A stretch of DNA of 64,000 nt from an uncultured Gemmatimonadales bacterium (GTDB taxonomy: Bacteria > Gemmatimonadota > Gemmatimonadetes > Gemmatimonadales > Gemmatimonadaceae), in contig CAWBZV010000005.1 in the NCBI GenBank assembly GCA_963793305.1, positions 544,001 to 608,000 of the forward strand, read 5' to 3'. Below the pieces are notes generated by a model. It made no database searches. It had not been told where the DNA came from and worked only from the letters and a program-made list of their open reading frames with translations. Made by a program: the position numbers and the translations under genes. This document shows positions 7,282-61,150 of the stretch, one piece after another. The first letter of the stretch is position 1, and each line of letters starts with the position of its first letter.

Positions 7282-7299
7282 TGCTTGCACGAAAGCAAC
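7282..7299 (-). promoter_or_regulatory. 18-bp motif copy GTTGCTTTCGTGCAAGCA
   Basis: Degenerate match to the window-wide consensus, pointing into the CPBP gene. Confidence 0.55.
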
Positions 7300-7329
7300 A
7301 TCCACGGCGCCCGACGCGTCCGTCGGGTT

Positions 7330-8973
7330 TCAGGGTGCGTTGGAACGGTAGTCTGCAAGAAGAATGAGGCCATCCGCAAGCGTCTCCCGCCAGCTCACGT
7401 AGTCGTGGCCCCCGATGAACTCCTGGTAGAAGACCTTATAGCCCTTGGCGCGCAGTACATCCCGGAGGTGGCGGTTCGGTACGAGGATCGAGCCGCCCTT
7501 GCCGGTCACGTCGAGCTCCATCGACCCTGCGTCGAGGTAGAACCGGATCGGCAGCTTGGGGCTCGTGACGAATAGCCGCGCGACGTAACTCGGGTCAGCA
7601 TCCGGGTCGAATGACCCTGGCTTCGAAGGGTCTTGCGGTGGTATCCACCAATACGATCCGGATTGGGAGAGCACGTTGCCGAACGTCTCCGGATGCCGGA
7701 ACGCGGCGTACGTTGCGGCCAAGCCCCCGTAACTCGATCCGCCAATCGTCACCCAGCGCGGATTCGTCGTGACGTGGTAATGCTGCCGCACCCACGGTAC
7801 GAGCTCGTGGCTCAGGAAGTCCGCGAACGTGGGGTTGCACGGCAGTTCGGTCGCGCGGGCGACGTTCGAGATCATCACCGCCACGACCGGTGGGATACGT
7901 TTCGCGGCGATCAGATTGTCCAGAATGACGGGAGTCGGGACGACCTGAAGGTAGGTGTCGCCGTCGAACACGAGGAGGAGACCGTACGGCTTCGCGCTCG
8001 TCGAATAGCCCGGTGGCGTGTACACGGTGATCTTGCGCGAGTTCTTCAAGAGCGCGCTCTCGATGCGCGTCGTGTCGAGCTTCCCGGTGGCGACGTCGGA
8101 TCGCTTCTCGATCCATGGCTGCGGCGGAGCGTCCGGCATCTCGAGGATCGACGCGCCGCGATGCAGTGCCGCGTCGGGATCGTGGGGATCCTGGAACATG
8201 GCGCGGGGATTCAACGGGTCGCGCTGGGAGACCGCGGCGATCACGTTCTGAATGGCGGAGTCGCCAAACGTCTGCTTCGTGAAGTGCGGTGGATCTGGTG
8301 CCAGGGTGTAGTACGTGCGCGCGCGGTGGTCGACGCGAAAGGACTTGTACCAGACGTTGGTTCCGGCGATGCGCGTCATGAGGCAGTTCTCCGGGTTGTC
8401 CCGAAGGCATGGGGCGTACACGACGAGCACGCCGCTCGTTTCATCCCCGCCGCGCCAGAGGAATGTCACCAAGGTGTTCTCGATCAGGGGGCTTCCTTGG
8501 GGACCGATCTGTTGCCAGAATGCCGCGGCGTCGGCCGGGGTCTTGATCTGCGCGATGCGTGGACTCTGGTTCGTATCCGGCGGCGGCGTCACGACGGGCG
8601 GTCCGGATATGCCGAGCAGGGTAATGGAATAGGTCGCCGGGACGTTCTTCTCGCGCGCAGAGACGGTGAGCTGCCACGGTCCGGCCTGGGCGGCGAAAAA
8701 TCGCGCCGGCCTGCCTTTGAGGAGCGTCGAGGAAAATGCTCGTTCGAGCATACCGCTTGGGTCAGAGACGGAAAGGATCACGTCCTGGCCTTTATCGGAG
8801 AGCTGCAGCGCGACCAGGTTGCCCGCGCGCAGGTCGAGCGTGTATCGGTCGATCGCGCCTGCCTCAACGACGTGCGTGATCGGCTTGCCGGCCTCGAGCT
8901 GAGGCACGGGGGCGGTCTGCGCATTGAGAAGGGACGACGCGAGAGAGACGAGCAGGCAGTGCACGATGCGCAC
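7330..8973 (-). CDS. enterochelin esterase (Fes)-like hydrolase with signal peptide and extra N-terminal domain
   Basis: VTFLWRG, DPLNP, RKITVYTPPGY, GGSSYGG, VLSQSGSYWW and GGHDY. Confidence 0.85.
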   Translation of the reverse strand: MRIVHCLLVSLASSLLNAQTAPVPQLEAGKPITHVVEAGAIDRYTLDLRAGNLVALQLSDKGQDVILSVSDPSGMLERAFSSTLLKGRPARFFAAQAGPWQLTVSAREKNVPATYSITLLGISGPPVVTPPPDTNQSPRIAQIKTPADAAAFWQQIGPQGSPLIENTLVTFLWRGGDETSGVLVVYAPCLRDNPENCLMTRIAGTNVWYKSFRVDHRARTYYTLAPDPPHFTKQTFGDSAIQNVIAAVSQRDPLNPRAMFQDPHDPDAALHRGASILEMPDAPPQPWIEKRSDVATGKLDTTRIESALLKNSRKITVYTPPGYSTSAKPYGLLLVFDGDTYLQVVPTPVILDNLIAAKRIPPVVAVMISNVARATELPCNPTFADFLSHELVPWVRQHYHVTTNPRWVTIGGSSYGGLAATYAAFRHPETFGNVLSQSGSYWWIPPQDPSKPGSFDPDADPSYVARLFVTSPKLPIRFYLDAGSMELDVTGKGGSILVPNRHLRDVLRAKGYKVFYQEFIGGHDYVSWRETLADGLILLADYRSNAP

Positions 8974-9038
8974 GGATTGCTCCGAAATGAGGTTGAGTCC
9001 GCGGGTGAAGTGAACTTGGACTCGCGGCGTGGCCCACG

Positions 9039-9638: not shown

Positions 9639-11744
9639 TCAATACTGAAGATCGTGCTGTGAGACCTGCTTGTTCTGCAGGTACTTGTCGAACCAGCCGA
9701 GGATGTGCTGGAGGCGTTCGATACGGTGCTGCGGCTTCCCGGATCGCGACAGCTCGTGGGTCTCGCCGGGAAATGACACCATGACGGTCGTTTTGTGGAG
9801 CGCCTTGAGCGCGCGGAACATTGTCATGCCACCCGATCCCGATGGTGCTCTCGTGTCCAATTCACCTTCCACCAGCATGAGTGGTGTGGTGACGCGCTCG
9901 ATGTAGGTAATCGGCGACCGCCGTGCGTAGTCCTGTGGATCCTTGAAGGGCGGCTCCCGGAACCAGTTGGGCGTGAATAACGTGAAGTCCGCCGTATACC
10001 ACCAGGCCGACCAGTCCGCGATCGAGCGCTGCGAGACCGCCGCCGCAAATCGGTTCGTCTGGGTGATGATCCAATTCGTCAACAACCCACCTCCGCTTCC
10101 TCCGGTCACTCCCAACCGTTTCTCGTCGATGTACCCGCGCTTGATCAGCGTATCGACTCCGATCATGAGGTCTTTGAAGTCGTCGCCGGGGTAGTGATAC
10201 TGAATGACGTTGCCGAACGCTTCTCCATAGCTGGTGCTGCCACGGGGGTTCGGCGCCAGTACGACATACCCCCGTGCCGCCATGACCTGAAACTCATGGA
10301 AGAACGACTCGCCATAGGCGGTATGCGGGCCGCCATGGATGTTCAAGATGAGCGGATATTTCTTACTCGGCGAGAAATCCGGTGGCTTGACGATCCAGGC
10401 CTCGATGGGCGTGCCATCAAAGCTCTTGTAGATGATCCGCTCCGGAGTCGACAACGTGAGCTGCGTCCACAGTGAGTCGTTCACGTGCGTCAGCTGCGTC
10501 AATGCCTTGGTCGCTGGATCGAGCGCATACAGCTCCGTGAGATGCGTGCCGTCGCTGATCGTGAGCGCGAACTTGCCCGCACCTGGCGTCGCGGTGTACG
10601 CGACAATATCGTGCGCGCCCGTCGTCACCGGGTCGATCGCCTTGGTGGCCACGTCGATCCGCACGATGTTCGATCGTCCATGCTCGGTCATCGCGATGAA
10701 CACGTTCTTTCCGTCCGCCGACCACACGAGCGGGTCCCCACCACCCCCTCGCGGCGGATGTTGATCTCCGAGCACAAAGCTGCCGACATCCGCGTCGCCA
10801 CCCTTGGTCAATCGCACCACTGGCCCGCGCGCACCCTCCTCTCCGAGGAACACCGCCTCCTGCGTCCACGACTGCGCATGGGCAGGATTGATCGCGCCAG
10901 TGAACGCGAACGTTTTCCCGTCTGGCGCCGACGCGACCCGCTCGATGGTCCCGTCGATGTCGAGGATCTTGGTCATCGCCCCACCGGCTGCCGGTACGGC
11001 GAAGGCGTCATCGTCGGGGTTATCATAGTACGGCTCTTCAACCCGGTCCGACGTGAACACGATGCGCGAGCCGTCCACGCTCCACGTCGGACCGTTTTCA
11101 TCATAAGGGCCGAACGTGATCTGCCGCGCCTTCGCCGGCGCGTCGGCGGCCGGATCGACGGGCACGACCCAGATGTGATCGTGCCGCATCGGATCGAGCC
11201 AGCCCTTGTCATTGTCGCGGTATTCCGCCCGCGTGATCACCCGCACGTCGCTCTTCGGCTTTGACGGCGCGCTATCCTCGCTGAGCGTCGAGCTCGTGAA
11301 GGCGATCATACGGCCATCCGGCGACCACTGCTCGGACGACGCACCTTTCGCCAGGTCCGTGAGCTGCCGCGGCTCTCCGCCCGCTAGCGACAGCAGATAC
11401 AACTGAGGCGACCCCGTGTCAGTCGCCGTCCGCACGAACGCGATCGCGCGACCGTCAGGCGACCACCGCGCGGCCTTGTCCCGCGGCCCAGCCGTGAGTC
11501 GTCTCGGAACGCCCCGCCCATCCGTCGCGACAACCCAGACGCTCGTCTCGTACTTGTCCCCCTGCTCGCTGACGGTCACCAGCGTGTACGCCGCGAGCGC
11601 GCCATCCGGCGAGATGCGCGGATCGGCGACCCACCGGAATTGCAACAAGTCGCGCTCGGTAATCGGTCGTGGCGCTGGTGTCGTGACCGGCGCCATGATG
11701 ATCGACCCAACCATACTCAACGTCAGGGGCAACAGATGACGCAC
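9639..11744 (-). CDS. S9 family peptidase (acylaminoacyl/dipeptidyl peptidase-like) with beta-propeller
   Basis: IHGGPH, NPRGSTSYG, GGSGGG nucleophile, catalytic His in ETHEL, and PD40-like WSPDG repeats. Alternative in-frame ATG at 11795. Confidence 0.92.
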   Translation of the reverse strand: MRHLLPLTLSMVGSIIMAPVTTPAPRPITERDLLQFRWVADPRISPDGALAAYTLVTVSEQGDKYETSVWVVATDGRGVPRRLTAGPRDKAARWSPDGRAIAFVRTATDTGSPQLYLLSLAGGEPRQLTDLAKGASSEQWSPDGRMIAFTSSTLSEDSAPSKPKSDVRVITRAEYRDNDKGWLDPMRHDHIWVVPVDPAADAPAKARQITFGPYDENGPTWSVDGSRIVFTSDRVEEPYYDNPDDDAFAVPAAGGAMTKILDIDGTIERVASAPDGKTFAFTGAINPAHAQSWTQEAVFLGEEGARGPVVRLTKGGDADVGSFVLGDQHPPRGGGGDPLVWSADGKNVFIAMTEHGRSNIVRIDVATKAIDPVTTGAHDIVAYTATPGAGKFALTISDGTHLTELYALDPATKALTQLTHVNDSLWTQLTLSTPERIIYKSFDGTPIEAWIVKPPDFSPSKKYPLILNIHGGPHTAYGESFFHEFQVMAARGYVVLAPNPRGSTSYGEAFGNVIQYHYPGDDFKDLMIGVDTLIKRGYIDEKRLGVTGGSGGGLLTNWIITQTNRFAAAVSQRSIADWSAWWYTADFTLFTPNWFREPPFKDPQDYARRSPITYIERVTTPLMLVEGELDTRAPSGSGGMTMFRALKALHKTTVMVSFPGETHELSRSGKPQHRIERLQHILGWFDKYLQNKQVSQHDLQY

Positions 11745-11820
11745 CGAAACGCCTCGCGAGTCAGAAGCCGGGTGGCATGTGGATAGTTCGCCCATAGCAC
11801 TATTCAATGCATCGGGCAAT

Positions 11821-11838
11821 TTCTAGAACAAACGCAAC
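11821..11838 (-). promoter_or_regulatory. 18-bp motif copy GTTGCGTTTGTTCTAGAA
   Basis: Upstream of the S9 peptidase; in-frame ATG 26 nt downstream. Confidence 0.75.
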
Positions 11839-11918
11839 ACGGTGGCGCGGATGCACGCGGTCTACCGCGACGCCGGCTCGTTCGTTATCGTTGCGATCCG
11901 AACGCAACGGGGTCCGCC

Positions 11919-14743: not shown

Positions 14744-14761
14744 GTCTAAAACAAACGCAAC
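14744..14761 (-). promoter_or_regulatory. 18-bp motif copy GTTGCGTTTGTTTTAGAC
   Basis: Left member of a divergent pair, pointing to the MBL-like gene. Confidence 0.7.
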
Positions 14762-14807: not shown

Positions 14808-14825
14808 GTTGCTTTTGTTCAATAC
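14808..14825 (+). promoter_or_regulatory. 18-bp motif copy GTTGCTTTTGTTCAATAC
   Basis: Right member of the divergent pair; in-frame GTG of the alkyl sulfatase ORF 26 nt downstream. Confidence 0.7.
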
Positions 14826-18794: not shown

Positions 18795-18812
18795 GTTGCA
18801 CTCGTTCAAGAC
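18795..18812 (+). promoter_or_regulatory. 18-bp motif copy GTTGCACTCGTTCAAGAC
   Basis: ATG 18852 lies 40 nt downstream. Confidence 0.72.
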
Positions 18813-23221: not shown

Positions 23222-23239
23222 GTCTTGAACGGCTGCAAC
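23222..23239 (-). promoter_or_regulatory. 18-bp motif copy GTTGCAGCCGTTCAAGAC
   Basis: BlaI-like ATG 28 nt downstream. Confidence 0.72.
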
Positions 23240-23799: not shown

Positions 23800-23817
23800 G
23801 TCTTGAACGACCGCAAC
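23800..23817 (-). promoter_or_regulatory. 18-bp motif copy GTTGCGGTCGTTCAAGAC
   Basis: DinB ATG 33 nt downstream. Confidence 0.75.
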
Positions 23818-27044: not shown

Positions 27045-27062
27045 GTCTTGCACGAAGACAAC
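27045..27062 (-). promoter_or_regulatory. 18-bp motif copy GTTGTCTTCGTGCAAGAC
   Basis: Upstream of the MBL remnant. Confidence 0.68.
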
Positions 27063-28330: not shown

Positions 28331-28348
28331 GTTGCAATCGTTCTAGAC
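28331..28348 (+). promoter_or_regulatory. 18-bp motif copy GTTGCAATCGTTCTAGAC
   Basis: Upstream of the YceI-TPR gene. Confidence 0.72.
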
Positions 28349-29534: not shown

Positions 29535-29552
29535 GTTGGATTTGTTCTAGAC
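29535..29552 (+). promoter_or_regulatory. 18-bp motif copy GTTGGATTTGTTCTAGAC
   Basis: About 260 nt upstream of AraC paralogue 1, same strand. Confidence 0.72.
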
Positions 29553-29809: not shown

Positions 29810-30734
29810 ATGGCGCGACACGAGAGGCGGCCGCAACTGGCGCGCGGTGAGTACTACGGCCGTGTCGTGACGCATCGCGATACGGCGGGGCTGCGGTTGA
29901 CCGATCTGCATCACGCGCGGGGCGTGTTCTTGCCGGAACACACGCACGAGTGCGCGTATTTTTGGCTCCTGCTGTCTGGCGCGTATCGAGAGCACATCGG
30001 GTCGAGGGAGTACCCGCATTGGCCGTTCTCGTTCGGATACTGTCCGATCGGGCTCGAGCATCGGGATGAGGTGGGTCGGTGTGGCGCCCGGTTCTTCGCG
30101 ATCGAGCTCGACGCGCACGGTGCGCAGATGATCGCGGACCTGAACCGTCCGATGAGCACGGCACCGTTCGAGGTGCACGACACGTTGGCGTTCAGCGCGC
30201 TCCTCCAGCTCCACACGGAGTTCTTGCGCGCCCGCGACGGTGGGTATGAGGTGGAGTGCCTCACCGCGGAAACGCTGACGGCCGAGTTCATCGGCTTCGC
30301 GTTCGAGCCCCGGGCCCGGCCCGCGCACCGCCAACCGCGCTGGCTCGCTCCGGTGATCGAGTATCTCGACGCGCACTATGCCCATGTCATCCGCATTAGC
30401 ACGTTGGCGGCCAGTGCGGGAGTGCATCAGGTACACCTGGCGCGCGTGTTTCGCGAGGTCCACCGCTGCAGCATTGCGCAGTATCTGACGACGTTGCGCG
30501 TGCGGCGCGCCTGTTCGTTGCTCGAACGTCGGAGAGCTGACGCTGAGCCAGATTGCGCTACTGACGGGATTCTCGGATCAGAGTCATTTCACGCGCGCCT
30601 TTACGGCCACGGTCGGCTGTTCGCCTGGGGCCTTCCGGCGGGCCGTGTTCCCGCGCGTGCGGTTGGTGCCGGATGCAGCGACACACGCCGCACCGTGTTA
30701 TTCCGAGGGGATTCGTTCGAGTCAGTCGGCGTGA
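29810..30734 (+). CDS. AraC-family transcriptional regulator, paralogue 1 (apparent frameshift at ~30525)
   Basis: Cupin-like LPEHTHECAY and HTH GVHQVHLARVFR. After removing one A: LSQIALLTGFSDQSHFTRAF, collinear with the paralogue at 42758. Confidence 0.92.
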
Positions 30735-30772
30735 GGGTCCCCGGCGCGTCAGCGCCACGGAGTGCGTCGGCA

Positions 30773-30790
30773 TTGCGCGGCGTTCAAACC
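30773..30790 (+). promoter_or_regulatory. degenerate motif copy TTGCGCGGCGTTCAAACC
   Basis: Directly after araC1; CPBP ATG 29 nt downstream. Weak match. Confidence 0.4.
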
Positions 30791-31770: not shown

Positions 31771-31788
31771 GTTGCATTTGTTCAATAC
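31771..31788 (+). promoter_or_regulatory. 18-bp motif copy GTTGCATTTGTTCAATAC
   Basis: LytTR regulator ATG 35 nt downstream. Confidence 0.72.
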
Positions 31789-33579: not shown

Positions 33580-33597
33580 GTCTTGAACGAACGCAAC
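33580..33597 (-). promoter_or_regulatory. 18-bp motif copy GTTGCGTTCGTTCAAGAC (consensus)
   Basis: Left member of a divergent pair. Confidence 0.78.
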
Positions 33598-33637: not shown

Positions 33638-33655
33638 GTTGCGTGCGTTCAATAC
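33638..33655 (+). promoter_or_regulatory. 18-bp motif copy GTTGCGTGCGTTCAATAC
   Basis: Right member of the divergent pair. Confidence 0.72.
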
Positions 33656-41777: not shown

Positions 41778-41795
41778 GTCTTGAATGAATCCAAC
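41778..41795 (-). promoter_or_regulatory. 18-bp motif copy GTTGGATTCATTCAAGAC
   Basis: Upstream of the lipoprotein gene. Confidence 0.7.
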
Positions 41796-42564: not shown

Positions 42565-42579
42565 CGCGACAATCAGGGT

Positions 42580-42597
42580 GTCTAGAATGAATCAAAC
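42580..42597 (-). promoter_or_regulatory. 18-bp motif copy GTTTGATTCATTCTAGAC (no same-strand gene directly downstream)
   Basis: 16/18 identical to the copy at 41778; divergent from araC2. Confidence 0.6.
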
Positions 42598-42757: not shown

Positions 42758-43684
42758 ATGTCGCGATATGAGGCCAGGCCCCGTCTCTCCCGGGGCGAGC
42801 ACTACGGTCGCGTCGTCACACATCGCGAGACGGCGGGACTGCGGCTGACCGAGCTGCATCACACGCGCGCGGAGCTCTTGCCGGAGCACACGCACGAGTG
42901 TGCGCACTTTTGGCTCCTCCTCTCGGGTGCGTTCCAAGATCACTTCGGGTCGAAGGTGCGTCCGTATCGACCGTTCTCGTTCGGCTACTACCCCGGCGAG
43001 CTCGAGCAGCAGGACGAGTTTGGCCGAGATGGCGCGCGATTCTTTACGATTGAGCTCGACGCGCACTGGGCGCAGATGGTTGCGGATCTGAACCGTCCCC
43101 TGAGCGCTGAGCCGGCCGATGTGCACGACACGCTCGCCTTTCGGGCGATGCTGCAGCTGCACAGCAGATTCCTCCACGCCCGTGACGGCGGCTATGACGT
43201 GGACTGCCTCGCCGCGGAGTCGCTGACCGCGGAGCTCATCGGCTACGCGTTCGAACCGCGCAGTCGTTCTCAGCAGCGGCAGCCGCGCTGGTTGAGTCCG
43301 GTCATGCAGTTTCTCGATGAATACTATACCCGCCCGTTCCGCATCAGCACGCTGGCGGCTTGCGCAGGCGTCCACCCGGTGCATCTGGCGCGTGTCTTCC
43401 GGGAGGTGCACCGGTGCAGTATCGCCCAATATCAGACGGCGTTGCGCATCCGACGCGCCTGTTCGTTGCTCGGCGTGTCAGATCTCACGCTGAGTCAGAT
43501 TGCGCTGCAGACGGGATTCGCCGATCAGAGCCATTTTACGCGTGCCTTCACTGCGACGACCGGTTGCCCACCTGGCGAGTTCCGGCGAACTGTTTTTCCA
43601 CGCGTTCGTGCGGACGAGCTTTCGGATTCGCTTCGGCACGTTCCGGACTACGACGATCGCGTGCGTACGAATCGGTCGGCGTAG
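42758..43684 (+). CDS. AraC-family transcriptional regulator, paralogue 2
   Basis: LPEHTHECAH, GVHPVHLARVFR and LSQIALQTGFADQSHFTRAF. Confidence 0.95.
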   Translation: MSRYEARPRLSRGEHYGRVVTHRETAGLRLTELHHTRAELLPEHTHECAHFWLLLSGAFQDHFGSKVRPYRPFSFGYYPGELEQQDEFGRDGARFFTIELDAHWAQMVADLNRPLSAEPADVHDTLAFRAMLQLHSRFLHARDGGYDVDCLAAESLTAELIGYAFEPRSRSQQRQPRWLSPVMQFLDEYYTRPFRISTLAACAGVHPVHLARVFREVHRCSIAQYQTALRIRRACSLLGVSDLTLSQIALQTGFADQSHFTRAFTATTGCPPGEFRRTVFPRVRADELSDSLRHVPDYDDRVRTNRSA

Positions 43685-43731
43685 GGGCTCAGGGCGGGCA
43701 TCGCGCGGGTGAGCGCGCCGTGACACTGCGG

Positions 43732-44178
43732 CTACTTCGCTCCGCTCGGTTGAGTCGATGCGGACGATGACGTTGATAGTCCGACGCTCAGTGCGATGGC
43801 GGCCGTCACCGCGGTGAGGATCGCGACGAGCGCAATCGTCTTGCCACTCGAAATCTTTCGCTGCTCCGTGACGGCGATGTCGGACACGGGAATGGTCACG
43901 ATTTCGCCAGTCCACGGCGCTTCCGTGCCATCGAGCAGCGTCGTGCGCATCATGGATAGGGTCACCGTCGACGTATCGACGGTGCGAAGGCGGCCCGCCA
44001 CCATTCGTACTTGCGTGCCGATCTGGTTGGCCAATGTCGTGCGCGCGTCCGGCGTGATTGTCATGCGGACCTCGTTGCCGGCTACGAGGCGCGCGCGAGG
44101 CACGTTGCCGTACTCGAAGCAGCTGGCCGTGAAGAGCACGAGCAGGAACGGCCCGTGGGGGCGAAAGCGTGAGAGCAT
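43732..44178 (-). CDS. hypothetical lipoprotein with C-terminal membrane helix, downstream of susD
   Basis: Lipobox FTASC; hydrophobic C-terminal segment. Confidence 0.65.
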   Translation of the reverse strand: MLSRFRPHGPFLLVLFTASCFEYGNVPRARLVAGNEVRMTITPDARTTLANQIGTQVRMVAGRLRTVDTSTVTLSMMRTTLLDGTEAPWTGEIVTIPVSDIAVTEQRKISSGKTIALVAILTAVTAAIALSVGLSTSSSASTQPSGAK

Positions 44179-44233
44179 CAGCGGGCGCCGCCGGCTCAGG
44201 ATCGAGCCGGCGGCCATACCAATCTCATCGGGG

Positions 44234-45833: not shown

Positions 45834-45849
45834 GGGAGTCGATGTCCGG

Positions 45850-48800
45850 TCAGCGGTTGAGGGAAACGGTAATGACGTAGGAGCGATCCTGGGGAATGTT
45901 GAAGTAGTCGATCCCGCGGATCGGCGACGCCGAGCCCAAAATGCTGGTCTCTGGGTCGATGCCCTTGTACGACGTCCAGGTGTGGAGGTTGCGGCCGGAC
46001 AGTCGGAGCTCGATGCTCGAGAATAACGTCACGCGTTGGATCGCCGGCATGTCGAGCGTGTAGCCAACCGAGATCTCGCGCAGTTTGGCGAACCCGGACG
46101 GCTCCACGAAGAGCGCACTCGCGCCGCTGAAGACGCCGTCCGCTCCCTGGAACCAGTTCTGGTCGAGCGTGACGGACTTACCGGCACCCGGGCCGGCCAC
46201 AGGACCGGGCATGTAGCTCGACCCGTACACGACGCTCTTACCCCGAACGAGCGTGTTGGCCAATGTCCCGAACCAATTGAGCGCGCCCTCGGTGCCATTG
46301 TAGCTACTGCCACCGTTCTGGACGTCGAGCAGCGCCGTGATCGTGAATTTTTGCAGGTGAATGCCGGTGTGTACTGCGCCGATCCAGTTGCGGTTCGGAT
46401 CGCCGATGACGTACGAGGCCAATGCGTCGACTTGCGGCAACCCACTCGCGTCGAGGTACACGGAGCCGGGCTTCGCGCCTTTGCATTGACCCGCGGTCTG
46501 GTCGAGGTTCACACCATTGAGGTTCACGTTGTGACCGCAGCGCACGACGTCGGTACCGTAATAGACGCCGACCTGTTGTCCCACGATTGCCGCGCCGGTG
46601 ATACCACCCAGCCCACCGGTGCCGCCCATATTGACGAACTGCACGCCATTCGGCAGGCTCGTCACCTGGCTCCGGTTCCGCGACCAGTTTACGCCAACGT
46701 CCCAGGACAGCAGCTTCGTCTGGATCGGGCGCAGGTTCAGCGCGACCTCGAATCCGTGATTCCAGAGATCGGCGGCGTTTTGATACTGCTGTGTGTAGTT
46801 CGTGTAGGGTGAGACCGGCACGGGAAAGATCGCTCCGTCCGTGTTCTCCCGATAATACGAGAAGCTCACGTCCCCGAAGTTTTTGAGAAACCCGATGTCG
46901 GTCCCGATCTCGAACTCCTTCTGGCGCTCGGTTGCGAGGTTCGGGTTCGGCTCGATCGGTTGCGTGACCACACCACCTTGGCCGTTGATGCTGGCCGTGT
47001 TGATCGTGGTGAAGCCGTCGCCGAAGAGCGCCGACGCGAACGTATTGGAGAGCACGTAGGGCTGTGGTTGCGTACCGCTTTCGCCATACGCCGACCGCAG
47101 TTTCACGCTCGTCAGGATGTTGTTGTTGTTCTCGCCTTGGCGAATCAGCTGCCAGGCAGCGCTCACCTTGGGGAACAAGCTGAACTGCTGATTCACGCCG
47201 AACGTCGAGGCGCCGTCATCGCGCAAGGCGCCGGTGAGCGTGAGTTGGTGGAACAGGCTCGCCTGGGCCTGGCCGAAGAACGAGGCCAGGCGGACCGCCG
47301 ACGTATACGCGAACGGTGATTGGACGAGGGAGCCGTTCGTGACCACCAATGGCGCCGGCGACGCGAGGGCATTGACCTGGGTCGCCTCGGTGTTGAACTG
47401 CTTCACGTTCTCGTTGTTGCCGACGGTGAGCGACCCATCGAAGTTGCTGGAGAACGAGTGCGTCGCGGTCGCCGTGAGGGTCTGATCGATCGACCACTGT
47501 TTCACGAAGCCTTGATTGACGAAGCCTTGCGCGATCGAAGCATTTGTTGGAACGAATCCCGCGCTTCCGGAGGCCGACCACGGCTCGGTGAACAGTCGCT
47601 CGTCGTTCGAGTAGTCCGCGCCAATGTTCTCGCTGAACTTGAGCCACGAGAGCGCCTGGTAATCGGCCGTGATGTTGCCGAACGTGCGCGCCACGTTTGA
47701 CGTGTTCTTCTCGTTGTTGGCCACGAAGAACGGATTGTCGTACACGCGCGAGATGTAGTCCGTCCCGGGCGCGGGATTTTCGAAGCGCGTCGATACGGGT
47801 TCGCCGTCCGGCGCGAGGTAGGCGGCGTTGTTGAACGTCGCCGGCGTGCGCCACGCGCCCAGGAGGAGGCTCGAGAGGCTGTTACTGCTCTCGACATACG
47901 CCCCGTTCGAACGTCGAGAACGCGATGTTCGCCGACAGGCGGAGGTCCGAGTTGACCTGATGCGCGCCGTTGAACCGGAGGGCGGTGCGGGCGTAACCAT
48001 CGTTCGGCCCGATGAGCATGCCCCGGTTGTCGTTGTATGCGCCGGACACGTAGAACGTCGTCCGCTCGTTGCCGCCGGACGCGGTGATGGCCTCGTCGTA
48101 GACGTGGCCGGTCGTGAACATGTTGTTGTAGTTGTTATAAATCGGCGTGCCGGCCTGGATGGTATCGCCCCAGGATGCGCCACGGCCGGGCGGCGCACAA
48201 TTGATGATGCCGGCGCATGAATACGTCGCGCCACCGGTGCCGAGGTTGTACAGCGTCTGGTGCGCCGGGAGGTTCCCGACATTGTCCCATGACGTCGAGC
48301 TCTTGGCCGAGTAGTGCGTTTGGCCGGCGCGGCCCCGTTTCGTCGTGATGAGAATGACGCCCTGGCCGGCCCGCGATCCGTAAATCGCGCCCGCCGAGGG
48401 ACCTTTCAGAATCTCGACGTTCTCGATGTCGTCGGGATTGATGTCGAGCGCGCGATTGGGTTGCTGCGGGCCTCCGTTGGCGGCCGCCGTCATACCGGGC
48501 GCGAAGCCCGGGGTCTGCTCGATCGAGTTGTCGACCGGGAGGCCGTCGACCACGATGAGCGGCTGACCGTCGGACGCGGTCAGGGTCGTGAGGCCACGGA
48601 GCTGGATGTACGTCGAGACGCCCGGCTGGCCGGAGCTGGACGACACTTCCACTCCAGGCGCCTTGGCGGCGAGCGCGGTGATCACATTCGACTCGTTGCT
48701 GCGTTGAATCTCGTCGGGCGCGACCGTGCTGCGCGCCGTCCCGAGTTGCTCCACCGTCTGCTGCGTGCCCTGGCCGGTGACGACCACTGTGCCCAATTGG

Positions 48801-49156
48801 AAGGGATTGAGGGCGAGTGTGAAGTTCTGGGTGATCGGACCACCGGTGAGTGTCACCGGCGCGGCGGCGCTCGTATAGCCAACCAAACGCACCGTCAGCG
48901 TGACCGCCTGTCCCGCGAGCCGAGCGGCCGGAATGACCAGAGTGTAGTGGCCGTCACCCCGGGTGGTGGCGCTCACGTTCATCGTTTGGATGAACACATT
49001 CGCGTCGGACAGGGGTATGCCGTTGTTGCTCGTCACCAGTCCGGTGATGGTGGCCGGTGCTTGAGCCGTGGCGCGATGGGGCAGCGCCAAGGCGAGCGCG
49101 GCGGCGACCGCACGCACCGTCCTCTGGGAGAGCGCCCTACTTCGCTGACTGGACAT
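45850..49156 (-). CDS. SusC/RagA-family TonB-dependent receptor (apparent frameshift at ~47910)
   Basis: Carboxypeptidase-like N-domain, QPLIVVDG, DINPDDIENVEILKGPSAGAIYGSRAGQGVILITTKRG, FPKVSAAW, GRNLHTWT and GIDPE. Confidence 0.93.
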
Positions 49157-49312
49157 AGGTCTCATGACACCTCGCGGGTGGGGGATGTCTTGGCGATCTC
49201 TCCGCGACCCAACGCTACGGACACCTACTATGGAAATAGTTGGGACAGGGAATCGCTATCACATCCGTAATGCAAAGTGGACCAAACGATGACAACCCCG
49301 CGGGCGATACTC

Positions 49313-49350
49313 TTGAACAAACCCAACATGCGGTTGAACAAACCCAACAT
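49313..49350 (-). repeat. exact 17-bp direct repeat TTGAACAAACCCAACAT x2 with 4-bp spacer, equal to two tandem motif copies (49310-49327, 49331-49348)
   Basis: Read directly from the sequence; 21-bp period; upstream of susC. Confidence 0.85.
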
Positions 49351-49363
49351 CACGCGCGGGGCA

Positions 49364-49381
49364 GTTGTGTTCGTTCAAGAC
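49364..49381 (+). promoter_or_regulatory. 18-bp motif copy GTTGTGTTCGTTCAAGAC
   Basis: Divergent partner of the susC tandem site. Confidence 0.77.
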
Positions 49382-49438
49382 ACCATGCTGCTCCTCCGTA
49401 GCATTCGATAGATGCAGCCCGCGTTACGGTAGAGTCCC

Positions 49439-50503
49439 GTGCATCCACTCCATCACGCGACGCTCCTCACAGGGTTGTTGGCGGGTCTCCATGCGAGCGT
49501 CTGTCCTCCGGTGCACGCGCAGTCGGTGTCGTCGATCGATGGGACGTGGGTGGGTGTACTGAGTAGCAGCCGGGATACGGCGTATACCGTCGTCTCGATT
49601 GACGAAGACAAGAATGGGACCAGACGCGTCGCGTGGAATCGCCCGATCGGCGGGCCCGATCCATTCGACAGCGGCGCGTCCGGGCGCGCCGATGCCGACT
49701 CGCTCTGGCTGCCGCTTCGAGAATCGGTCGGTTGGTTTCACCTGGCTGGCGATCGTCTGCGCGCGTCGCCGCGTCGGGCCAGTGCGGTGGAGCTCCGCCG
49801 GGTGCGCTACCTCGCCGACAGCGACGCGGTGGCGTACGGTGGTGCGTACCGGCTCACGGACGGGAGCGGAGATATCGTTGTCGCGACATTTCTCGGTCGC
49901 GTCGCGTTCTTCGACGCGAGAGATGGCCGGAGCGCACGGCTGAATCCAGACGGGCCCGACGCGTTCACGAACGGACCCGGCGCCATCGTGCACGTTCCGG
50001 TCGAAGCCCGTTGGATGTTCCGTGGCGGCGAGGCGGGCGATGTTCGCGCGCTGCGCATTCTCGCCACGAACGGTGCGGTCACCACGGCCACGCGGGACAC
50101 GTCGTATCGGAGCGAGATGGTGTCGTATCCCAGCGGCGGCCTATCGATCGCCGGGACACTCCGGACGCCGCGCGAGGGTCATCCTCGCCCGGCGATTCTC
50201 TTGATCTCGGGGTCGGGGCCGTCGACGGAGGTGCGCCAGGTGATCGCAGCACATCGCGCGTGGGCCCAACGCCTGCAGGCGGAAGGGCGTCTCGTGTCCG
50301 CGGACAAGTTGACGGATGATGACGGCCGTTCCGTTCCGGCCGCGCCGACCACTCCCGCCGTCTCCGCCACCCCGACCGCGCGCCTCGGCGGATTCTACAT
50401 CATTCGCGCCCGCGACTACGATGAGGCGGTCCACATCGCGAACGACGGTCCGACTGTCAAGTACGGCGGCCGGGTGCAGGTGCGGATGATCGACAAAGTC
50501 TGA
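49439..50503 (+). CDS. chimeric ORF: N-terminal part of an exported alpha/beta hydrolase fused to a YciI-like domain
   Basis: IAGTLRTP...PAILLISGSGPS runs directly into HRAWAQRL...LGGFYIIRARDYDEAVHIA...GRVQVR. No GxSxG nucleophile segment follows. Confidence 0.65.
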   Translation: MHPLHHATLLTGLLAGLHASVCPPVHAQSVSSIDGTWVGVLSSSRDTAYTVVSIDEDKNGTRRVAWNRPIGGPDPFDSGASGRADADSLWLPLRESVGWFHLAGDRLRASPRRASAVELRRVRYLADSDAVAYGGAYRLTDGSGDIVVATFLGRVAFFDARDGRSARLNPDGPDAFTNGPGAIVHVPVEARWMFRGGEAGDVRALRILATNGAVTTATRDTSYRSEMVSYPSGGLSIAGTLRTPREGHPRPAILLISGSGPSTEVRQVIAAHRAWAQRLQAEGRLVSADKLTDDDGRSVPAAPTTPAVSATPTARLGGFYIIRARDYDEAVHIANDGPTVKYGGRVQVRMIDKV

Positions 50504-50553
50504 GACCTCGCCGGGTACAATGACCGCCGATTCGCCGGCGGTGCGGCCAGCGT

Positions 50554-50571
50554 GTTGCGTTCGTTCTAGAA
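50554..50571 (+). promoter_or_regulatory. 18-bp motif copy GTTGCGTTCGTTCTAGAA
   Basis: In-frame ATG of the M16 peptidase ORF 27 nt downstream. Confidence 0.77.
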
Positions 50572-50648
50572 ATCGCCAGCCGCATCGAATAAGTGATATG
50601 GCTGGCCAACCAGCTGGCCACCTGGGTTCTGATTCGCGAGGAGTGATC

Positions 50649-52043
50649 GTGCGTCATCTGCTGCGATTCCTGAGCGTCGTCATTCTAGCGGGTTGTGGCG
50701 CGTCAGCGGCCGGGACGAAGGCGGCGTCATCGGCCACGGCGTTCCACCTCCCGGCCCAGTATCGAACGCTCCCCAATGGCCTTCGCGTCGTCCTCTCGCC
50801 GGACCACACGGCGCCGATCGTCACCGTCGCCGTGTACTATCACATCGGGTTTCGCATCGAGCCGCGCGGCCGCACGGGGTTCGCGCACCTGTTCGAGCAT
50901 CTCATGTTCCAGGGCTCGGAGCACCTCGGCAAGTTGGCATTCATCAAGCTCGTCGAGGCGAATGGCGGCTCCCTCAACGGCTCGACGCGATTCGACTTCA
51001 CGAACTACTACGAGACGGTGCCGTCGAACACGCTCGAGACATTCCTGTGGGCCGAAGCCGATCGGATGCGATCGCTGGCGATCACGCAGGACAACCTCAC
51101 GAACCAGCAGGGGGTCGTGAAGAGCGAAGTCCGCGTCAACGTGATCAATACGCCATATGGGGGGTTCCCCTGGCTCGACATGCCCCAGTACGCGAATACC
51201 AATTGGTACAACGCACACAACTTCTATGGGGACCTGCACGATATCGACGCCGCCACACTGACGGATGCCGCCACGTTCCACCGCGCCTATTACGCGCCCA
51301 ACAACGCCGTGCTCGTCGTGTGGGGCGACCTGGACTCCGCGCAGACCTCGCGGTGGATCGACACGTACTTCGCATCCATCCCGCAAGGGCCCGCGGTATC
51401 ACGGCCCGATATCACGGAGCCGGTCCAGAACAAAGAGATCCACGCTCAGAAGACGGACTCGTTGGCGACGCGCCCGGCGCTGGCTTTTGCGTATCACATG
51501 CCGGCGCGGAACACCCCGGAGTACTTCGCGATGGGGCTCATCGACCAGATTCTGCTCCAGGGCAACGATTCGCGGCTGTATCAGGCACTCGTCCAACGAG
51601 CCGGCCTCACCGCCGACGTGACGGGCGGCATCAACCTCCTCGGCAACATGTTCGATTACGAGGGGCCAATGTTGTGGATCGCGTCGCTGTATCACGATCA
51701 GAACCACAGCGACGCCGAAATTCTGCATCTGGTCGATGCGACGATCGATTCGCTGTCGAACGTGCCCGTCGATCCCGCGACCGTGGCGCGCGCGGTGGTG
51801 AAAGCCCGCGCGCAGCTCTACGGCGCCATGACCCCCGGCTTCGGTGAGGGCGCGGCAGACATCCTGGCAAGCTACGCGCTGTTCGACAATGACCCCACCC
51901 GCGTCAATACCATCGACTCGTCCTTGAGCGCGGTCACGCCCGCCCTCATCCAACGCACCGCGCAAGAATATCTCCGAGTGACGAACCGCACCGTCCTCAG
52001 CATTCTTCCCGGGAAGACTGGCGATGCCACAGCTGTTCAGTAA
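50649..52043 (+). CDS. M16 family zinc peptidase, catalytic subunit, lipoprotein
   Basis: Lipobox LAGC, LPNGL, GFAHLFEHLMF (HxxEH), NGST and YYAPNNA. Alternative ATG at 50598. Confidence 0.93.
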   Translation: MRHLLRFLSVVILAGCGASAAGTKAASSATAFHLPAQYRTLPNGLRVVLSPDHTAPIVTVAVYYHIGFRIEPRGRTGFAHLFEHLMFQGSEHLGKLAFIKLVEANGGSLNGSTRFDFTNYYETVPSNTLETFLWAEADRMRSLAITQDNLTNQQGVVKSEVRVNVINTPYGGFPWLDMPQYANTNWYNAHNFYGDLHDIDAATLTDAATFHRAYYAPNNAVLVVWGDLDSAQTSRWIDTYFASIPQGPAVSRPDITEPVQNKEIHAQKTDSLATRPALAFAYHMPARNTPEYFAMGLIDQILLQGNDSRLYQALVQRAGLTADVTGGINLLGNMFDYEGPMLWIASLYHDQNHSDAEILHLVDATIDSLSNVPVDPATVARAVVKARAQLYGAMTPGFGEGAADILASYALFDNDPTRVNTIDSSLSAVTPALIQRTAQEYLRVTNRTVLSILPGKTGDATAVQ

Positions 52044-56475: not shown

Positions 56476-56493
56476 GGATTGAACGGATCAAAC
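56476..56493 (-). promoter_or_regulatory. degenerate motif copy GTTTGATCCGTTCAATCC
   Basis: Intergenic, pointing into the NTF2-like gene. Confidence 0.5.
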
Positions 56494-56518
56494 CTTCTCG
56501 TGATGCCGACGGTGGGCC

Positions 56519-57862
56519 CTAGCGCGCCGGGTGAATAGTATCGAAGAACACGAGGGCGTCGAACGCGCTCCCCGGCGGCGCGACGACATACCCGTCCTCC
56601 GCCCGCATGGCGTGAGGCGCGGCCAGCCAGCGAGCCACCGGGCCGGTAGCCGGTGCGCCCGCGATGTCCAACTGATACGTCGAGTATTGAAAGGGACGGA
56701 GGCTACATAACGTGCCATCGACACTCAAGGGATCAGCCGGACGTATAGCCTTGTCGGCACGGAGACGAAAGGCGGTGCCAATCGGAACGTAAGCGCTGCC
56801 CAGGTCGTGTTGGAGATACTGCCCCAGGCTGGCGACGGCGGTGGGGCGCGAGTTGAGCAGTTGACCGTCAATGAGCGCGCGGGACACGTGGAGGTTGTGG
56901 GCCCAGATCACGACCACTCCGCGCGCGCCTTCGCGAGAGAGCACCCATTCGACATTTGCAGTCATGGCTTGATCGCGGGGATTGCTCGGTGCGTTCCAGC
57001 CGACGTGTAGCGCCGTTTCGGTCTGGAGGGCAAGGCGTGTCAGTCGCAGTGCCCAGTCGTATGCGTCCGGTGACGATCGTGCGCGGTACACGGCGCCTTG
57101 TGATTGCATGCGGTCGACCAGGGTTTGCAACTGCGTCCGCAGTGCATCCTGCCTCTTACCGAGCGACACGTAGAGCGGTAGTGTGCCGGGGCCGTCGCTG
57201 TCCAACGCGCGCGCGATCGGCTCGAGCCCTGCGCGCGAGCGATCCGCGAAGGCTGGATCGACTCCTTGAAGAAAGTGCCACACGGACTCGAGCGCAGGAC
57301 GCAGGCTGCCGCCGCCATCTGCGGGCATGTCCATTCCGTAGAAATGGACGCGATGGGCAGCATCGTCGCCGCGGTTGTACGCATGCCGCCAGCGGAGCGC
57401 ACCAATCGTCTCGGTATCACGCCACCAGTCGTAACTCAGTGCACGCGAGAAATCGGGGGCGGTATCCGTCTCGCCGGACACCCAGGCGTCGATCGCCCGA
57501 GCTTCGACGAGTCCGGTTTCCATCACGACTGCCGCTACTGGTCGTCGCGCCAGCAGTTGAGCGGTAACTTGGCGATGCCATTGCAGGAACTCGTGCATGT
57601 CGTGAACGCTCTCGCCGAGTGCCACGATGCGAGCGTGACGGGTCAGTTGAACGAGCGTCGAATCCGGTGCGGGCAGCGGTCGGGCATGTGATCTCGACCA
57701 CTGGACAAAGGCGGCGCGGCCGGCTGTGTCTTGCGTCGGTTGGGCAAGACAGCGACCGGCGACGGTGGAAACGAGAAAGAGCGCGAGAGAAAAGGCGGTA
57801 CGACGCCCGCGAACCGGCCTCGTCATTCTCCACTGGAGGCTGAACGCTGCGAGGAATCGCAC
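56519..57862 (-). CDS. erythromycin esterase family protein, exported
   Basis: IVALGESVH, VVMETG, VHFYGMD, RDQAMTANV, IWAHNLH, LGQYL and FDALVF. Confidence 0.88.
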   Translation of the reverse strand: MRFLAAFSLQWRMTRPVRGRRTAFSLALFLVSTVAGRCLAQPTQDTAGRAAFVQWSRSHARPLPAPDSTLVQLTRHARIVALGESVHDMHEFLQWHRQVTAQLLARRPVAAVVMETGLVEARAIDAWVSGETDTAPDFSRALSYDWWRDTETIGALRWRHAYNRGDDAAHRVHFYGMDMPADGGGSLRPALESVWHFLQGVDPAFADRSRAGLEPIARALDSDGPGTLPLYVSLGKRQDALRTQLQTLVDRMQSQGAVYRARSSPDAYDWALRLTRLALQTETALHVGWNAPSNPRDQAMTANVEWVLSREGARGVVVIWAHNLHVSRALIDGQLLNSRPTAVASLGQYLQHDLGSAYVPIGTAFRLRADKAIRPADPLSVDGTLCSLRPFQYSTYQLDIAGAPATGPVARWLAAPHAMRAEDGYVVAPPGSAFDALVFFDTIHPAR

Positions 57863-57909
57863 CTCGGCATGGTTGTGGCCGCGTCAAAGTATCCGACTGT
57901 CGCGAGGCC

Positions 57910-57927
57910 TTCTTGAGGGAAACCAAC
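57910..57927 (-). promoter_or_regulatory. degenerate motif copy GTTGGTTTCCCTCAAGAA
   Basis: Esterase GTG 48 nt downstream. Confidence 0.45.
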
Positions 57928-58043
57928 ATCGGCGCGAAGTCCGTGTCGTCGTTGCGCCCGGTTGTGCTCTCTAATATGCTCCTGAGGGAAGTAACTAGGG
58001 GGAAGGCCGCCCCACGACTCGATGCGCTCGGCAACCGGGATCT

Positions 58044-58367: not shown

Positions 58368-58381
58368 CGCAGGGTCCTGAC

Positions 58382-61070
58382 ATGACAGCACACCGCGTTC
58401 GCGCCGGCGTGGCCCGGCTCTTCCAGCTTGCTTTGCGGCGTCCTGATCGGGCGGCGACCGAGGCCGATGCGGAGCTCGATGCGGTGCTCGAAGCCAAGGC
58501 GGAATATTTCATCGCGCGGGGGATGTCTCCCGAGGCGGCCCGCGCGGAGGCGACGCGCGCTCTGGGGATTCCGCTGGACGCTGCCCGGGCGCTCGTGCAC
58601 CGGTCGGCCCGACACCGGGAGCAGCGGCTGCGCATACGCGAGCGACTAGGCGAGGCCGTCGCCACCTGTCGGTACGCGGTGCGGACGTTGCGCCGGAGCC
58701 CGGTATTCGCTGTGGCGACGATCGCGACGCTGGCGCTGGCGATCGGCGCGACGACCGCGATCTATACGGCCGTCAACGCCGTGATCCTGCGGCCGCTTCC
58801 GTACACGCAGCCCGATCGCCTGGTGACCATCGGCGAGGACAACGCCGACTTCAACTGGCAGCTCGCCGATGCCGCGCCCGCCAACTTCCTCGACTGGCAC
58901 GATCGCGTGTCGGCATTTCGTGGGGTCGCGGCGTTTTCGCCGTTTGTCGGGAACGCCACGCTGACCGGATTTGGCAACCCGCGAGTGCTCAAGGCAACGC
59001 AGGCCAGCGGCAACTTGTTCACCGTGCTCGGCGTGCGCGCGGCAATGGGTCGCACATTCGAGGATGCGGAGACCTGGCAGCGGAGTGGTCGGCCGGTCGC
59101 GCTGTTGAGTGATCACGTGTGGCGAGAGGTCTTCGGGGGCAAGCCCGTCGTCGGGCAGACCATCCGACTCGATGGCCAGGCCGTCGACATCGTCGGCGTT
59201 CTGCCGGCGAGTTTCTCTATCCCCGGCCTTAGTGCCGACATCTGGGCGCCGTTCGGATGGGATCCCGCCAACCGTCAGCAGACGTGGTTTCGGCGGGCCC
59301 ATTTCGTACGCGTGTTGGCGCGCCTCGCTCCGGGCCTGACGATGGGGAGCGCGGACGCTGCGCTGCACGTCGTCGTCCGCGCGCTCCAGACCGAGTATCC
59401 GGCGACCAACGCGCACATGGGCGCAAGCCTGGCGCCCCTGCATGATTACCTGATCGGACCTGCGGAGCGCCCGCTGAGCGTTGCGTTCGCGGCCGCCGCG
59501 GCGCTCCTGCTCATTGCGTGCGCGAACGTGGGCAACCTGCTGCTGGTGCGCGCGGCGGCGCGGTCCCGTGAAGCGGCGTTGCGCCGCGCGCTCGGTGCCG
59601 GCCGGTCGCGGCTCGTGGTGCAGGCGTTGACGGAGAGCCTCATGCTTGCGCTCTTGGGCGGCACGGGTGGGATCGCGCTCGGCTGGTTGGGCACGGCGGC
59701 GCTGGCGGCATTGATGCCGCACAACATGCTGCCGGTGAACGATCTGGCCGTTGACTGGAGCGTGCTGCGGTTCGTCGGCGCCGTCACGTTGGTGTGTGGC
59801 ATCGCGTTCGGCATCGGGCCCGCGCTCTGGATGGCGCGGGGTGGAGCTGCCGACGCGCTCAAGGACGAAGCGCGCGGGTCGAGCGCATCCGCGCGGTCGC
59901 GGCGGTGGGGCGATACGCTGCTCGTGAGTCAGGTGGCGATCGCGCTCGCGCTCACGCTCGGTGCGGGGCTGCTGGTCAAGAGTTACGAGTTGCTGCAGCG
60001 GGTCAAGCCGGGGTTCGACCCGAGCGGGGTTCTGGCCGTCACGGTCGACGTGACATTCGACAGCGCGGCGAAGACTTTACGGTTCTATGACGATCTGTTG
60101 GCCCGTGCGCGTGGGCTGCCGGGGGTCGAGTCGGTGGCGCTCGTCTCCACGCTGCCGCTCACCGGTCCACCGTGGTCGAGCGAGTTCGCGGTGGCGGGCC
60201 GCCCACCTCTGCCGCGCGGGGGCAATGTGGTGCATCGGGAGGTGAGCCCCGATTACCAACGCGTGATGCGCGTGCCTCTCATACGCGGCCGCTTGTTCGC
60301 GGACGCCGATCGGTCGGACGCGCCGTTGGTCGTGCTGATCAACGAGACGCTGGCGAAGACGTACTTCCAGGGCGAGGATCCGATCGGCCTGCGGGTGGCG
60401 TTCGATCGCGTGCCGGATTCGAACGTCGCACTGGCGCACGATCATCGGCGTCGTGGGCGACGAGCGCCAGACGTCGATGAGCGAGGCGCCGCGATCCGAG
60501 TTCCTTGCTCCGGCAGCGCAGGATGGTGGGGAGAACCTGTCGCTCCTGCTGCGGACGCGCGGTGATCCTCACGCGCTCGTCGGGAGTGTTCGGCAGATCG
60601 TTGGAGCCCTCAGCCCGGACTTGGGCATCGCGTCGGTCCAGACAATGGCGGATGTGCGCGCGGCGGCGTTGGCGCGCGACCGGTTTCTGACCGTGCTGTT
60701 CCTGTTGTTCGCGGCCGTGGGGGTGGTGCTCGGCGTGGTCGGCATCTACGGGGTGGTGGCGCAGCTGGCGCGCCGGCGCATGCGCGAGCTCGGGATCCGC
60801 GTCGCGTTGGGCGCGCGGCGGTGGCAGGTGCAGTGGCTGGTGGTGCGGCGCGGGCTCGCGTTGTCGGCGATCGGGATCGCGATCGGGGTTGTCGGCGCGG
60901 TCGCGGTCACCGGTGTGATGCGGTCGCTCCTCTACGGGGTGACGCCGGAGGACCCACTGACGTTCGCGATCGTTCCGGCGCTGGTGCTCGTGACCGCCGC
61001 GCTGGCGTCGTGGGTGCCGGCGCTGCGGGCGAGCCGATCTGACGCGGCGGAGGTGTTGCGGGCGGAGTAG
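58382..61070 (+). CDS. MacB/FtsX-like duplicated ABC permease (ADOP type) with permease prefix domain (apparent frameshift at ~60422)
   Basis: GMSPEAARAEA, LRRSPVF, LLIACANVGNL and ELGIRVALGA. Removing one A gives DSTSHWRTIIGVVGD. Confidence 0.92.
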
Positions 61071-61132
61071 GCTGCAGTCGCCTGGGGGCAGTCATTGCCC
61101 GGCCGCGAGGGTGCGCGGTTCATGTGCCACGT

Positions 61133-61150
61133 GTTGTGTTCGTGCAAGAC
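61133..61150 (+). promoter_or_regulatory. 18-bp motif copy GTTGTGTTCGTGCAAGAC
   Basis: In-frame GTG 31 nt downstream. Confidence 0.75.

Follow-up and report, generated by a model that had tools for sequence, protein, structure and literature searches.

An 18-bp motif, GTTG(C/G)(G/A)TT(C/T)GTTCAAGAC, recurs in the 64,000-nucleotide stretch of an uncultured Gemmatimonadales genome analyzed here (the window; C5:544,001-608,000, C5 being one of the 26 contigs of the 5.72-Mb genome) and throughout a surrounding block of about 175 kb. The genome is placed in the Gemmatimonadaceae through a named protein that is identical to an AraC of the same genus (P0008 and L019). Our comparative analyses suggest that it marks a lineage-specific class II regulon of mostly exported hydrolases, controlled by AraC-type activators and built partly by promoter reuse, and we consider this the probable explanation. 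According to this model, the motif lies over the predicted -35 region of about 56 promoters and would be the activator site of two AraC paralogues encoded in the block, both of which would bind it and switch on 71 or more of the 138 gene calls, the majority of them for predicted exported hydrolases and importers. Activation would be of class II and would use the housekeeping sigma factor, with transcripts, several of them presumably leaderless, predicted to start 30-31 nt past the motif.

Confinement and promoter geometry of the motif

First, the motif is confined to a single block. A genome scan with a refined matrix yielded 56 matches at a score of at least 20, all 56 inside C5:435,375-609,649; the matrix was trained on this block itself, which makes up 3% of the genome, and five column-shuffled matrices gave 0-1 genome matches. 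The sites lie on both strands (26 plus, 30 minus), include nine back-to-back pairs with gaps of 5-76 nt and carry T at motif position 3 in all 56 cases. An earlier note had listed 23 motif positions in the window, and the motif, in some cases in weakened form, is found at all 23 coordinates on the strands given: re-counted against the consensus of that note, five have no mismatch, 11 have one, two have two and four have three (7282, 49331, 56476 and 57910), whereas 30773, with seven mismatches and its left half displaced by one base, is doubtful. The window contains 18 matches with at most two mismatches compared to 0.04 expected from 100 shuffles. With a matrix derived solely from the 38 sites that the block has beyond the window, 18 window sites score 21.5-32.2, a test that is not fully independent as those 38 were originally located with a window-seeded matrix; the weak sites reach about 13-15.8 (7282), about 16 (56476), 11 (49331) and about 9-11.2 (57910), and 30773 scores about -16 to -17.8. 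The three back-to-back pairs reported for the window were recovered, and the motif is, as had been stated, absent from the pca cluster and the GntR-iaaA block (top matrix scores 5.4 and 1.7). The extent of the set had been underestimated: the note caught about one third of it, and the 56 sites scoring at least 20 make the real set about 2.5 times larger. The sites and associated features of the window are the following.

7282..7299, minus: weak site upstream of a CAAX (Rce1-like) protease gene; TATCGC at +18
11821..11838, minus: site upstream of an S9 peptidase
11729..11846, minus: promoter-leader-start cassette (site, -10, leader, first codons VRHLL) common to the M16 gene; limits approximate; score 80, null maximum 41
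14744..14761, minus: site of back-to-back pair 1, upstream of an unassigned exported protein
14808..14825, plus: site of pair 1, upstream of an alkyl-sulfatase
18795..18812, plus: site upstream of a CarboxypepD-like-domain protein
23222..23239, minus: site upstream of a BlaI-like (Penicillinase_R) regulator
23800..23817, minus: site upstream of a DinB protein; ATG at +32
27045..27062, minus: site upstream of an internally deleted metallo-beta-lactamase (MBL)-fold gene copy (26519-26979)
28331..28348, plus: site upstream of a YceI-TPR gene; entire unit absent from a related strain
29535..29552, plus: site 258 nt ahead of the second AraC gene and directed toward it
29810..30734, plus: AraC paralogue 2, 72% identical to paralogue 1; keeps H44/H46/E61/H84
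30755..30771, plus: direct repeat of 17-18 bp, copy 1, flanking the CAAX unit; copy 2 at 31732-31749
30773..30790, plus: doubtful site upstream of a CAAX protease gene
31771..31788, plus: site upstream of a LytTR regulator; TATCGA at +18
33580..33597, minus: site of pair 2, upstream of a PALP enzyme
33638..33655, plus: site of pair 2, upstream of a beta-propeller phosphoesterase, an 89% copy of the site-less C5:1,198,181
41778..41795, minus: site upstream of an unassigned exported protein
42580..42597, minus: site in divergent orientation to AraC paralogue 1, now pointing at the 3' end of a convergent gene
42758..43684, plus: AraC paralogue 1 (P0001); cupin-fold N-terminal domain and double helix-turn-helix (HTH); D61 and Q84 versus E61 and H84 in the subfamily
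49310..49348, minus: a strong (49310) and a weak (49331) site in tandem, 21 bp apart, upstream of SusC/SusD; a relative has one copy
49364..49381, plus: site of pair 3, upstream of a YCII-domain protein
50554..50571, plus: site upstream of an M16 peptidase pair
50546..50664, plus: promoter-leader-start cassette common to the S9 gene; limits approximate
56476..56493, minus: weak site; TATGAT at +18
57910..57927, minus: weak site upstream of an erythromycin-esterase-family gene; TACTTT at +18; unit absent from a related strain
61133..61150, plus: site upstream of a DUF5700 zinc peptidase; GTG at +30

Second, the sites are arranged as promoter elements. Although called genes cover 74% of the block, not one of the 56 sites falls deep inside a gene, and 48 face a gene compared to 59% under the null (p=1.5e-5); the claim that 42580 is the sole exception did not hold, as eight of the 56 face a convergent 3' end. 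An nA..T hexamer stands at +18 after the motif in 26 of the 56 (null 3.5%, p=2e-23), compared to at most seven at any other offset from 10 to 27, and an ATG opening a frame of at least 90 codons occurs at +30-32 in eight of the 56 (null 1.4%, p=1e-6); gene calls came from our own codon-model caller, and some starts are wrong. Given the fixed -10 spacing and the ATG at +30-32, as in leaderless transcripts, the site likely occupies about -48 to -31, over the -35 region, if transcription starts at the predicted position 30-31 nt past the motif. On these predicted start sites, the forward site is centered near -41 and overlaps -35, and a canonical -10 follows at fixed spacing, both of which are hallmarks of class II activation. 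The convergent-facing sites (window 42580 and C5:435375, 441774, 494319, 495555, 499688, 523547 and 543159) could be promoters of antisense or small RNAs, or could have lost their targets; in four cases among them, one opposite-strand gene is enclosed by two same-strand sites. We rejected a mobile repeat, such as a miniature inverted-repeat transposable element or a repetitive extragenic palindrome, as the 40-nt flanks are mostly unrelated (16 of 1540 pairs score at least 20, compared to 3-4 when shuffled), and Rfam gave no match in the window. For window positions 41000-50999 no RNA holder was listed, which carries no information on expression.

Third, we found comparable numbers of the motif in none of the other genomes scanned. 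The exact pattern occurs 22 times here and not at all in 30 relatives, and among 400 genomes of the phylum it has a single match in 15 and more than one in none; a looser pattern gives 26 matches here compared to at most two in 42 genomes with the AraC subfamily described below and at most three in 260 genomes of the family. These counts include genomes G435 and G613 (two matches each), and locus L053 of G435 is among the 80 foreign loci analyzed below, but no conclusion rests on either. A metagenome scan for back-to-back pairs returned 78 loci, only two of which (L124 and L132) are relatives of the block; 49 were set aside for low GC content and lack of two matrix sites, and 27 as chance or short inverted repeats with no link to the block. 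A viral scan gave 16 single matches, none with an AraC gene nearby. Three matches in genome G558 were rejected as an array; two of its sites (L250:18704 and L251:596) lie 1.9 kb apart, and no AraC gene was detected within about 20 kb. The metagenome and viral scans used exact patterns, which expansions with variant sites would escape. The block itself is carried by related populations, as seen in L124 and L132 (84-89% identical) and in public-run contigs, one of which covers window positions 27000-31558 with 16 differences.

AraC paralogues and their link to the site

The genome contains 49 matches to HTH_18, 41 of them above the cut-off. Three loci belong to the AraC subfamily in question, and all three lie in the block: P0001 at window 42758, paralogue 2 at window 29810, and a remnant of a last HTH at C5:444,120. 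P0001 matches Pfam HTH_18 with 81 bits (cut-off 33.6), and in paralogue 2 the second HTH alone reaches 43 bits. We dismissed the possibility that paralogue 2 is a pseudogene because the extra base at 30525 that interrupts it is missing from contigs of three runs and thus represents an assembly error. Similar extra bases at 28678 and 47910 split the YceI and SusC genes and are likewise absent from the run contigs, and further split genes of the assembly may be errors too. The AlphaFold2 model made for P0001 (predicted local distance difference test score, pLDDT, 91) shows a cupin domain of nine strands at the N-terminus followed by the double HTH; its closest folds are ToxT, CsvR, Rns, CuxR and cupins (best E 7.6e-12, 10-13% identity). 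P0001 reached none of the 23 NCBIfam equivalog families compared (including AraC, RhaS/R, MelR, MarA, Rob, RamA and SoxS; best 56 bits versus 208), and the subfamily, which has more than 1000 relatives, includes no characterized member in the libraries searched.

Both recognition-helix regions are alike in the two paralogues. P0001 and its three closest relatives carry D and Q in place of the conserved subfamily residues E61 and H84, and because of this replacement the inducers of the two paralogues may differ. Thus, two inputs could drive one regulon through alike recognition helices and different predicted sensor pockets. The site at 29535 would be compatible with positive autoregulation of paralogue 2.

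The link between subfamily and site comes from other genomes, where the earlier note had suggested looking for the motif next to AraC homologs. The foreign sample comprised the best 80 of 569 confirmed loci, from Acidobacteriota, Gemmatimonadota, Bacteroidota and others. In 17 of the 80, a site scoring at least 12 lies immediately past the AraC gene or precedes it in divergent orientation, compared to 13 of 1896 random windows, and at a score of at least 16 the counts are 11 of 80 and two of 1896. These loci normally have one site per regulator, often at a fixed 32-34 nt past the last HTH, and their targets are likewise exported hydrolases. De novo motif discovery on the 80 foreign flanks alone returned AtGTTnnnTtcGTTCaAT (log-likelihood 238, compared to 60 for shuffled flanks), and when the genome was scanned with this motif, the block accounted for 17 of the 20 best matches and for 33 of the best 40, which is an independent test because the refined matrix was block-trained. 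Taken together, these comparisons make sequence-specific AraC binding to the site likely, and they give good support to the central proposal of the earlier note, a regulon under two AraC proteins, both of which are intact; the region is an island when set against the closest genome, though one of native composition.

These data also bear on the question of whether the sites are read by another factor, be it an AraC protein of an off-block type, a LytTR regulator of the block or an extracytoplasmic function sigma factor. Candidates are at hand, as the block encodes five LytTR regulators, with a sixth at window 5685 shortly beyond the site-led stretch, as well as one sigma-70-family fusion, and weak related sites flank three other AraC genes. 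However, the motif was recovered from the flanks of this subfamily alone and often keeps its fixed distance from the last HTH, sites next to other AraC types mostly have C at position 3 where all 56 block sites have T, and the -10 is of the housekeeping type. LytTR operators are direct repeats about 21-22 bp apart, whereas only one of the 56 sites has a partner 21 bp upstream; a second half-site was rejected on the same count, one site in 56 having a positive-scoring copy at -21. We therefore regard a different reader as very improbable. Next to off-block AraC genes, scores do not exceed 13 (48 of 49 examined). The weak related sites, at C2:758,879 and in the C2:62,905 and C5:420,592 regions, stand beside AraC genes of another type, and the operator may be common to several AraC subfamilies. 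The alternative that the motif encodes the peptide VAFVQD of AraC C-termini is true of one off-block AraC (C2:758,879) and was rejected for the block, where the frames upstream of sites are not AraC-like.

Content and proposed growth of the block

Site-led genes account for at least 71 of the 138 gene calls in the block. They include peptidases of the S9, M1, M13, M16, aspartyl, DUF5700 and CAAX types, as well as esterases, MBL-fold enzymes, a sulfatase, a phosphoesterase, SusCD importers, and BlaI-like and LytTR regulators. Signal-peptide-like N-termini, assigned by a crude hydrophobicity rule, were found in 28 of 37 site-led first genes compared to 1567 of 4445 (35%) genome-wide. The likely purpose of such a regulon would be the signal-induced scavenging of extracellular peptides and esters. 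The suggestion of peptide or antibiotic sensing and degradation in the earlier note survives in its first half, with peptidases and other exported hydrolases dominating; no test linked site-led genes to antibiotics, and the EreA-like, serine-hydrolase and MBL-fold genes could not be tied to them.

Comparison with the closest relative, G001, defines the block as an island because flanks that are 91-93% identical between the two genomes lie 197 kb apart here and 11 kb apart there, at tRNA-Pro. GC content of the block, overall and at third codon positions (GC3), matches the flanks. Attachment (att) copies were found only at C5:618,061 and 621,497, with none at the left block edge, and no recombinase family was detected among 155 scanned proteins of the block and its flanks. 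A single att-bounded element, such as an integrative and conjugative element, was rejected given the missing left att, the native composition, and the position of relaxase and MobC in small neighboring elements. The latter are tandem elements at tRNA-Pro(GGG), C5:611,600-629,500 (L007:3600-20000), with genes for relaxase, NikA/MobC, TIR_2 and RES domains; a recombinase-like open reading frame at C5:628,199, judged by eye, lies inside a tRNA-Pro element. At the left block edge, we noted a tRNA-Ile with a UAU anticodon (C5:432,842-432,915, L001:8842-8915, minus strand), which is 93% identical to the tRNA-Ile(GAU) at C2:481,800; its anticodon and T stems carry paired changes. UAU-anticodon tRNA-Ile is rare in bacteria. 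The share of ATA among isoleucine codons in the block (106 of 2209) is close to that in the rest (3225 of 74,989).

How might the regulon have grown? We propose that a one-regulator-one-target module expanded beside the tRNA-Pro integration hotspot, and that it did so by two routes, the loss of a redundant AraC gene with its site kept and the placement of gene copies behind site-bearing promoters. The first route is visible in one case: the same-genus genome G005 has the order PD40-PD40-AraC-site-SusC where the present genome has PD40-PD40-remnant-site-SusC. For the second, two clear cases are consistent with promoter reuse. One is the SusCD operon at C5:476,980, which matches C3:222,121 with 90.5% identity over a stretch that begins 11 nt ahead of the ATG and runs through the stop codon; SusCD would have gained its site after the genus radiated, because G001, G005 and G003 retain the site-less C3:222,121 upstream context. 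The S9 and M16 genes have in common one cassette of roughly 110 bp comprising site, -10, leader and first codons, and their off-block homologs start otherwise.

These observations have to be weighed against the idea that the sites are relics of separate AraC-site-target modules, whose regulators were deleted and whose sites now decay or are read incidentally, with no coherent regulon. The remnant with its site speaks for this idea, and in other genomes AraC targets include homologs of block genes (YceI in L009/L010, SusC in L019/L022). It is also consistent with the eight sites facing convergent gene ends and with the decayed site-led copy at 27045, where an MBL-fold gene (26519-26979, minus strand) is internally deleted, its ends being 90-93% identical (5' part 93%) to C5:514,988-516,102, and has retained its site. 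Nevertheless, 56 near-consensus sites stand against one remnant found, and an upstream site is missing from all 22 closest off-block paralogues of site-led genes and from all 23 loci of the same genus that are homologous to a block gene, whether that gene is site-led or not. In addition, the SusCD site appears to be a late gain, and in two relatives the sites have diverged less, at 0-4 of 18 positions, than the spacers. A collection of relics thus seems improbable to us.

A second alternative gives the motif an additional or even primary role as the target of recombination or insertion machinery by which units of site and gene are moved, which would explain the clustering. A related strain lacks three entire units (joints 28309-29523, 30741-31738 and 56511-58015, resting on single contigs of one run), and at two of the three joints both ends fall 12-33 nt upstream of a site. 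In L124, a different site-led unit stands back-to-back with the same SusC unit. The nine back-to-back pairs with their short gaps would also fit, as would the GTT with which the motif begins, like the attC core. However, the joints are upstream of the sites and not in them, and one is at the 17-18 bp repeat outside the motif; the sites occur on both strands, are non-palindromic and have unrelated flanks; and the protein scan above revealed no recombinase family. Moreover, the fixed -10 and the cross-phylum AraC link already account for conservation of the motif, and selection alone could put joints upstream of sites because the sequence that immediately precedes a class II site can be dispensed with. 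We consider a recombination target to be of low probability. A ~57-bp direct repeat (C5:537,484-537,540 and 538,504-538,560, L006) encloses site 538,357 and its gene. Unlikely as well is that the block is an active gene-recruitment platform, in which site-headed cassettes capture own or related gene copies, giving an inducible secretome array that resembles an integron but lacks attC and integrase, and in which a targeting mechanism inserts new units just upstream of activator-bound sites. Coding-exact copy edges were rejected as a block-specific signature of such capture.

Several observations weigh against the class II AraC regulon that we favor. About half of the block gene calls are not site-led by our rule, which misses genes with mis-called starts; 30 of the 56 sites lack nA..T at +18, and eight face convergent gene ends. 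The foreign loci place the -10 at +19 (10 of 25) more often than at +18 (four of 25), and 63 of the 80 score below 12 with the matrix of this genome, which implies that the site varies across the subfamily. The three off-block AraC genes of other types with related weak sites (scores 9-13) could contribute, and coding-only edges of copied genes occur off-block too. Similarity between neighboring sites barely exceeds that between distant ones (p=0.04-0.34), which suggests that local tandem duplication was not the main source of sites; candidate causes of their clustering are proximity selection for a low-copy activator (PMC2699516), accretion at the hotspot, and targeted insertion.

Known systems and implications

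ToxT, Rns, CsvR and CuxR have the same two-domain fold as P0001, and ToxT activates genes of its own island. Their regulons comprise few operons of one function, whereas about 50 promoters of unrelated hydrolases are involved here. Integrons hold cassettes in one orientation, with palindromic attC sites and an adjacent integrase, and crossover occurs inside the site. The block resembles them in being an array of unrelated genes, each with a short motif starting with GTT, whose units vary between strains; it differs in the use of both orientations, the absence of an attC palindrome, a predicted promoter for each unit and joints outside the motif, and no integron integrase was found here.

The predicted promoters are arranged as in the class II promoters of MarA, SoxS and RamA, where an asymmetric forward site near -41 overlaps a poor -35 and is followed by a canonical -10 (PMC10268841). 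Further likenesses are one site type for several paralogues and many targets (PMC10268841), while those regulators have no sensor domain and scattered targets in contrast to the cupin domain, unrelated site sequence and single block described here. Class I and II rules were obeyed by 8+11 of the 36 regions in the same source (PMC10268841). Putative mobile promoters are similar promoter regions before unrelated coding sequences, mostly in pairs with 92% average identity (PMC3575422). The S9 and M16 genes with their similar promoter region fit this description, but here dozens of promoters are alike in site and spacing only, and one regulator is implicated.

In E. coli and B. subtilis, small regulons are co-localized with their regulator and large ones have distant targets (PMC2699516). 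The proximity of low-copy local regulators to their targets would be in line with this pattern, and the full co-localization of a large regulon runs against it. In the literature searched, which covered few subscription journals and no supplements or regulon databases, we found no account of the motif or of this regulon. The proposed switch is of a familiar type; its operator, the assignment to this AraC subfamily, and a regulon of this size with full co-localization were not met in that literature.

Finally, our analyses yield a candidate binding motif, together with its promoter geometry, for an AraC subfamily that is widespread and occurs in Acidobacteriota, Gemmatimonadota and other phyla; the targets of the subfamily should thus become predictable. 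The block would offer a snapshot of regulon growth, from a one-to-one module to about 56 promoters for two regulators within one genus, and single recruitment events could be dated and mapped from paralogues, sister genomes and strain variants. Whether proximity or promoter reuse drives the clustering of such a regulon thereby becomes a testable question.

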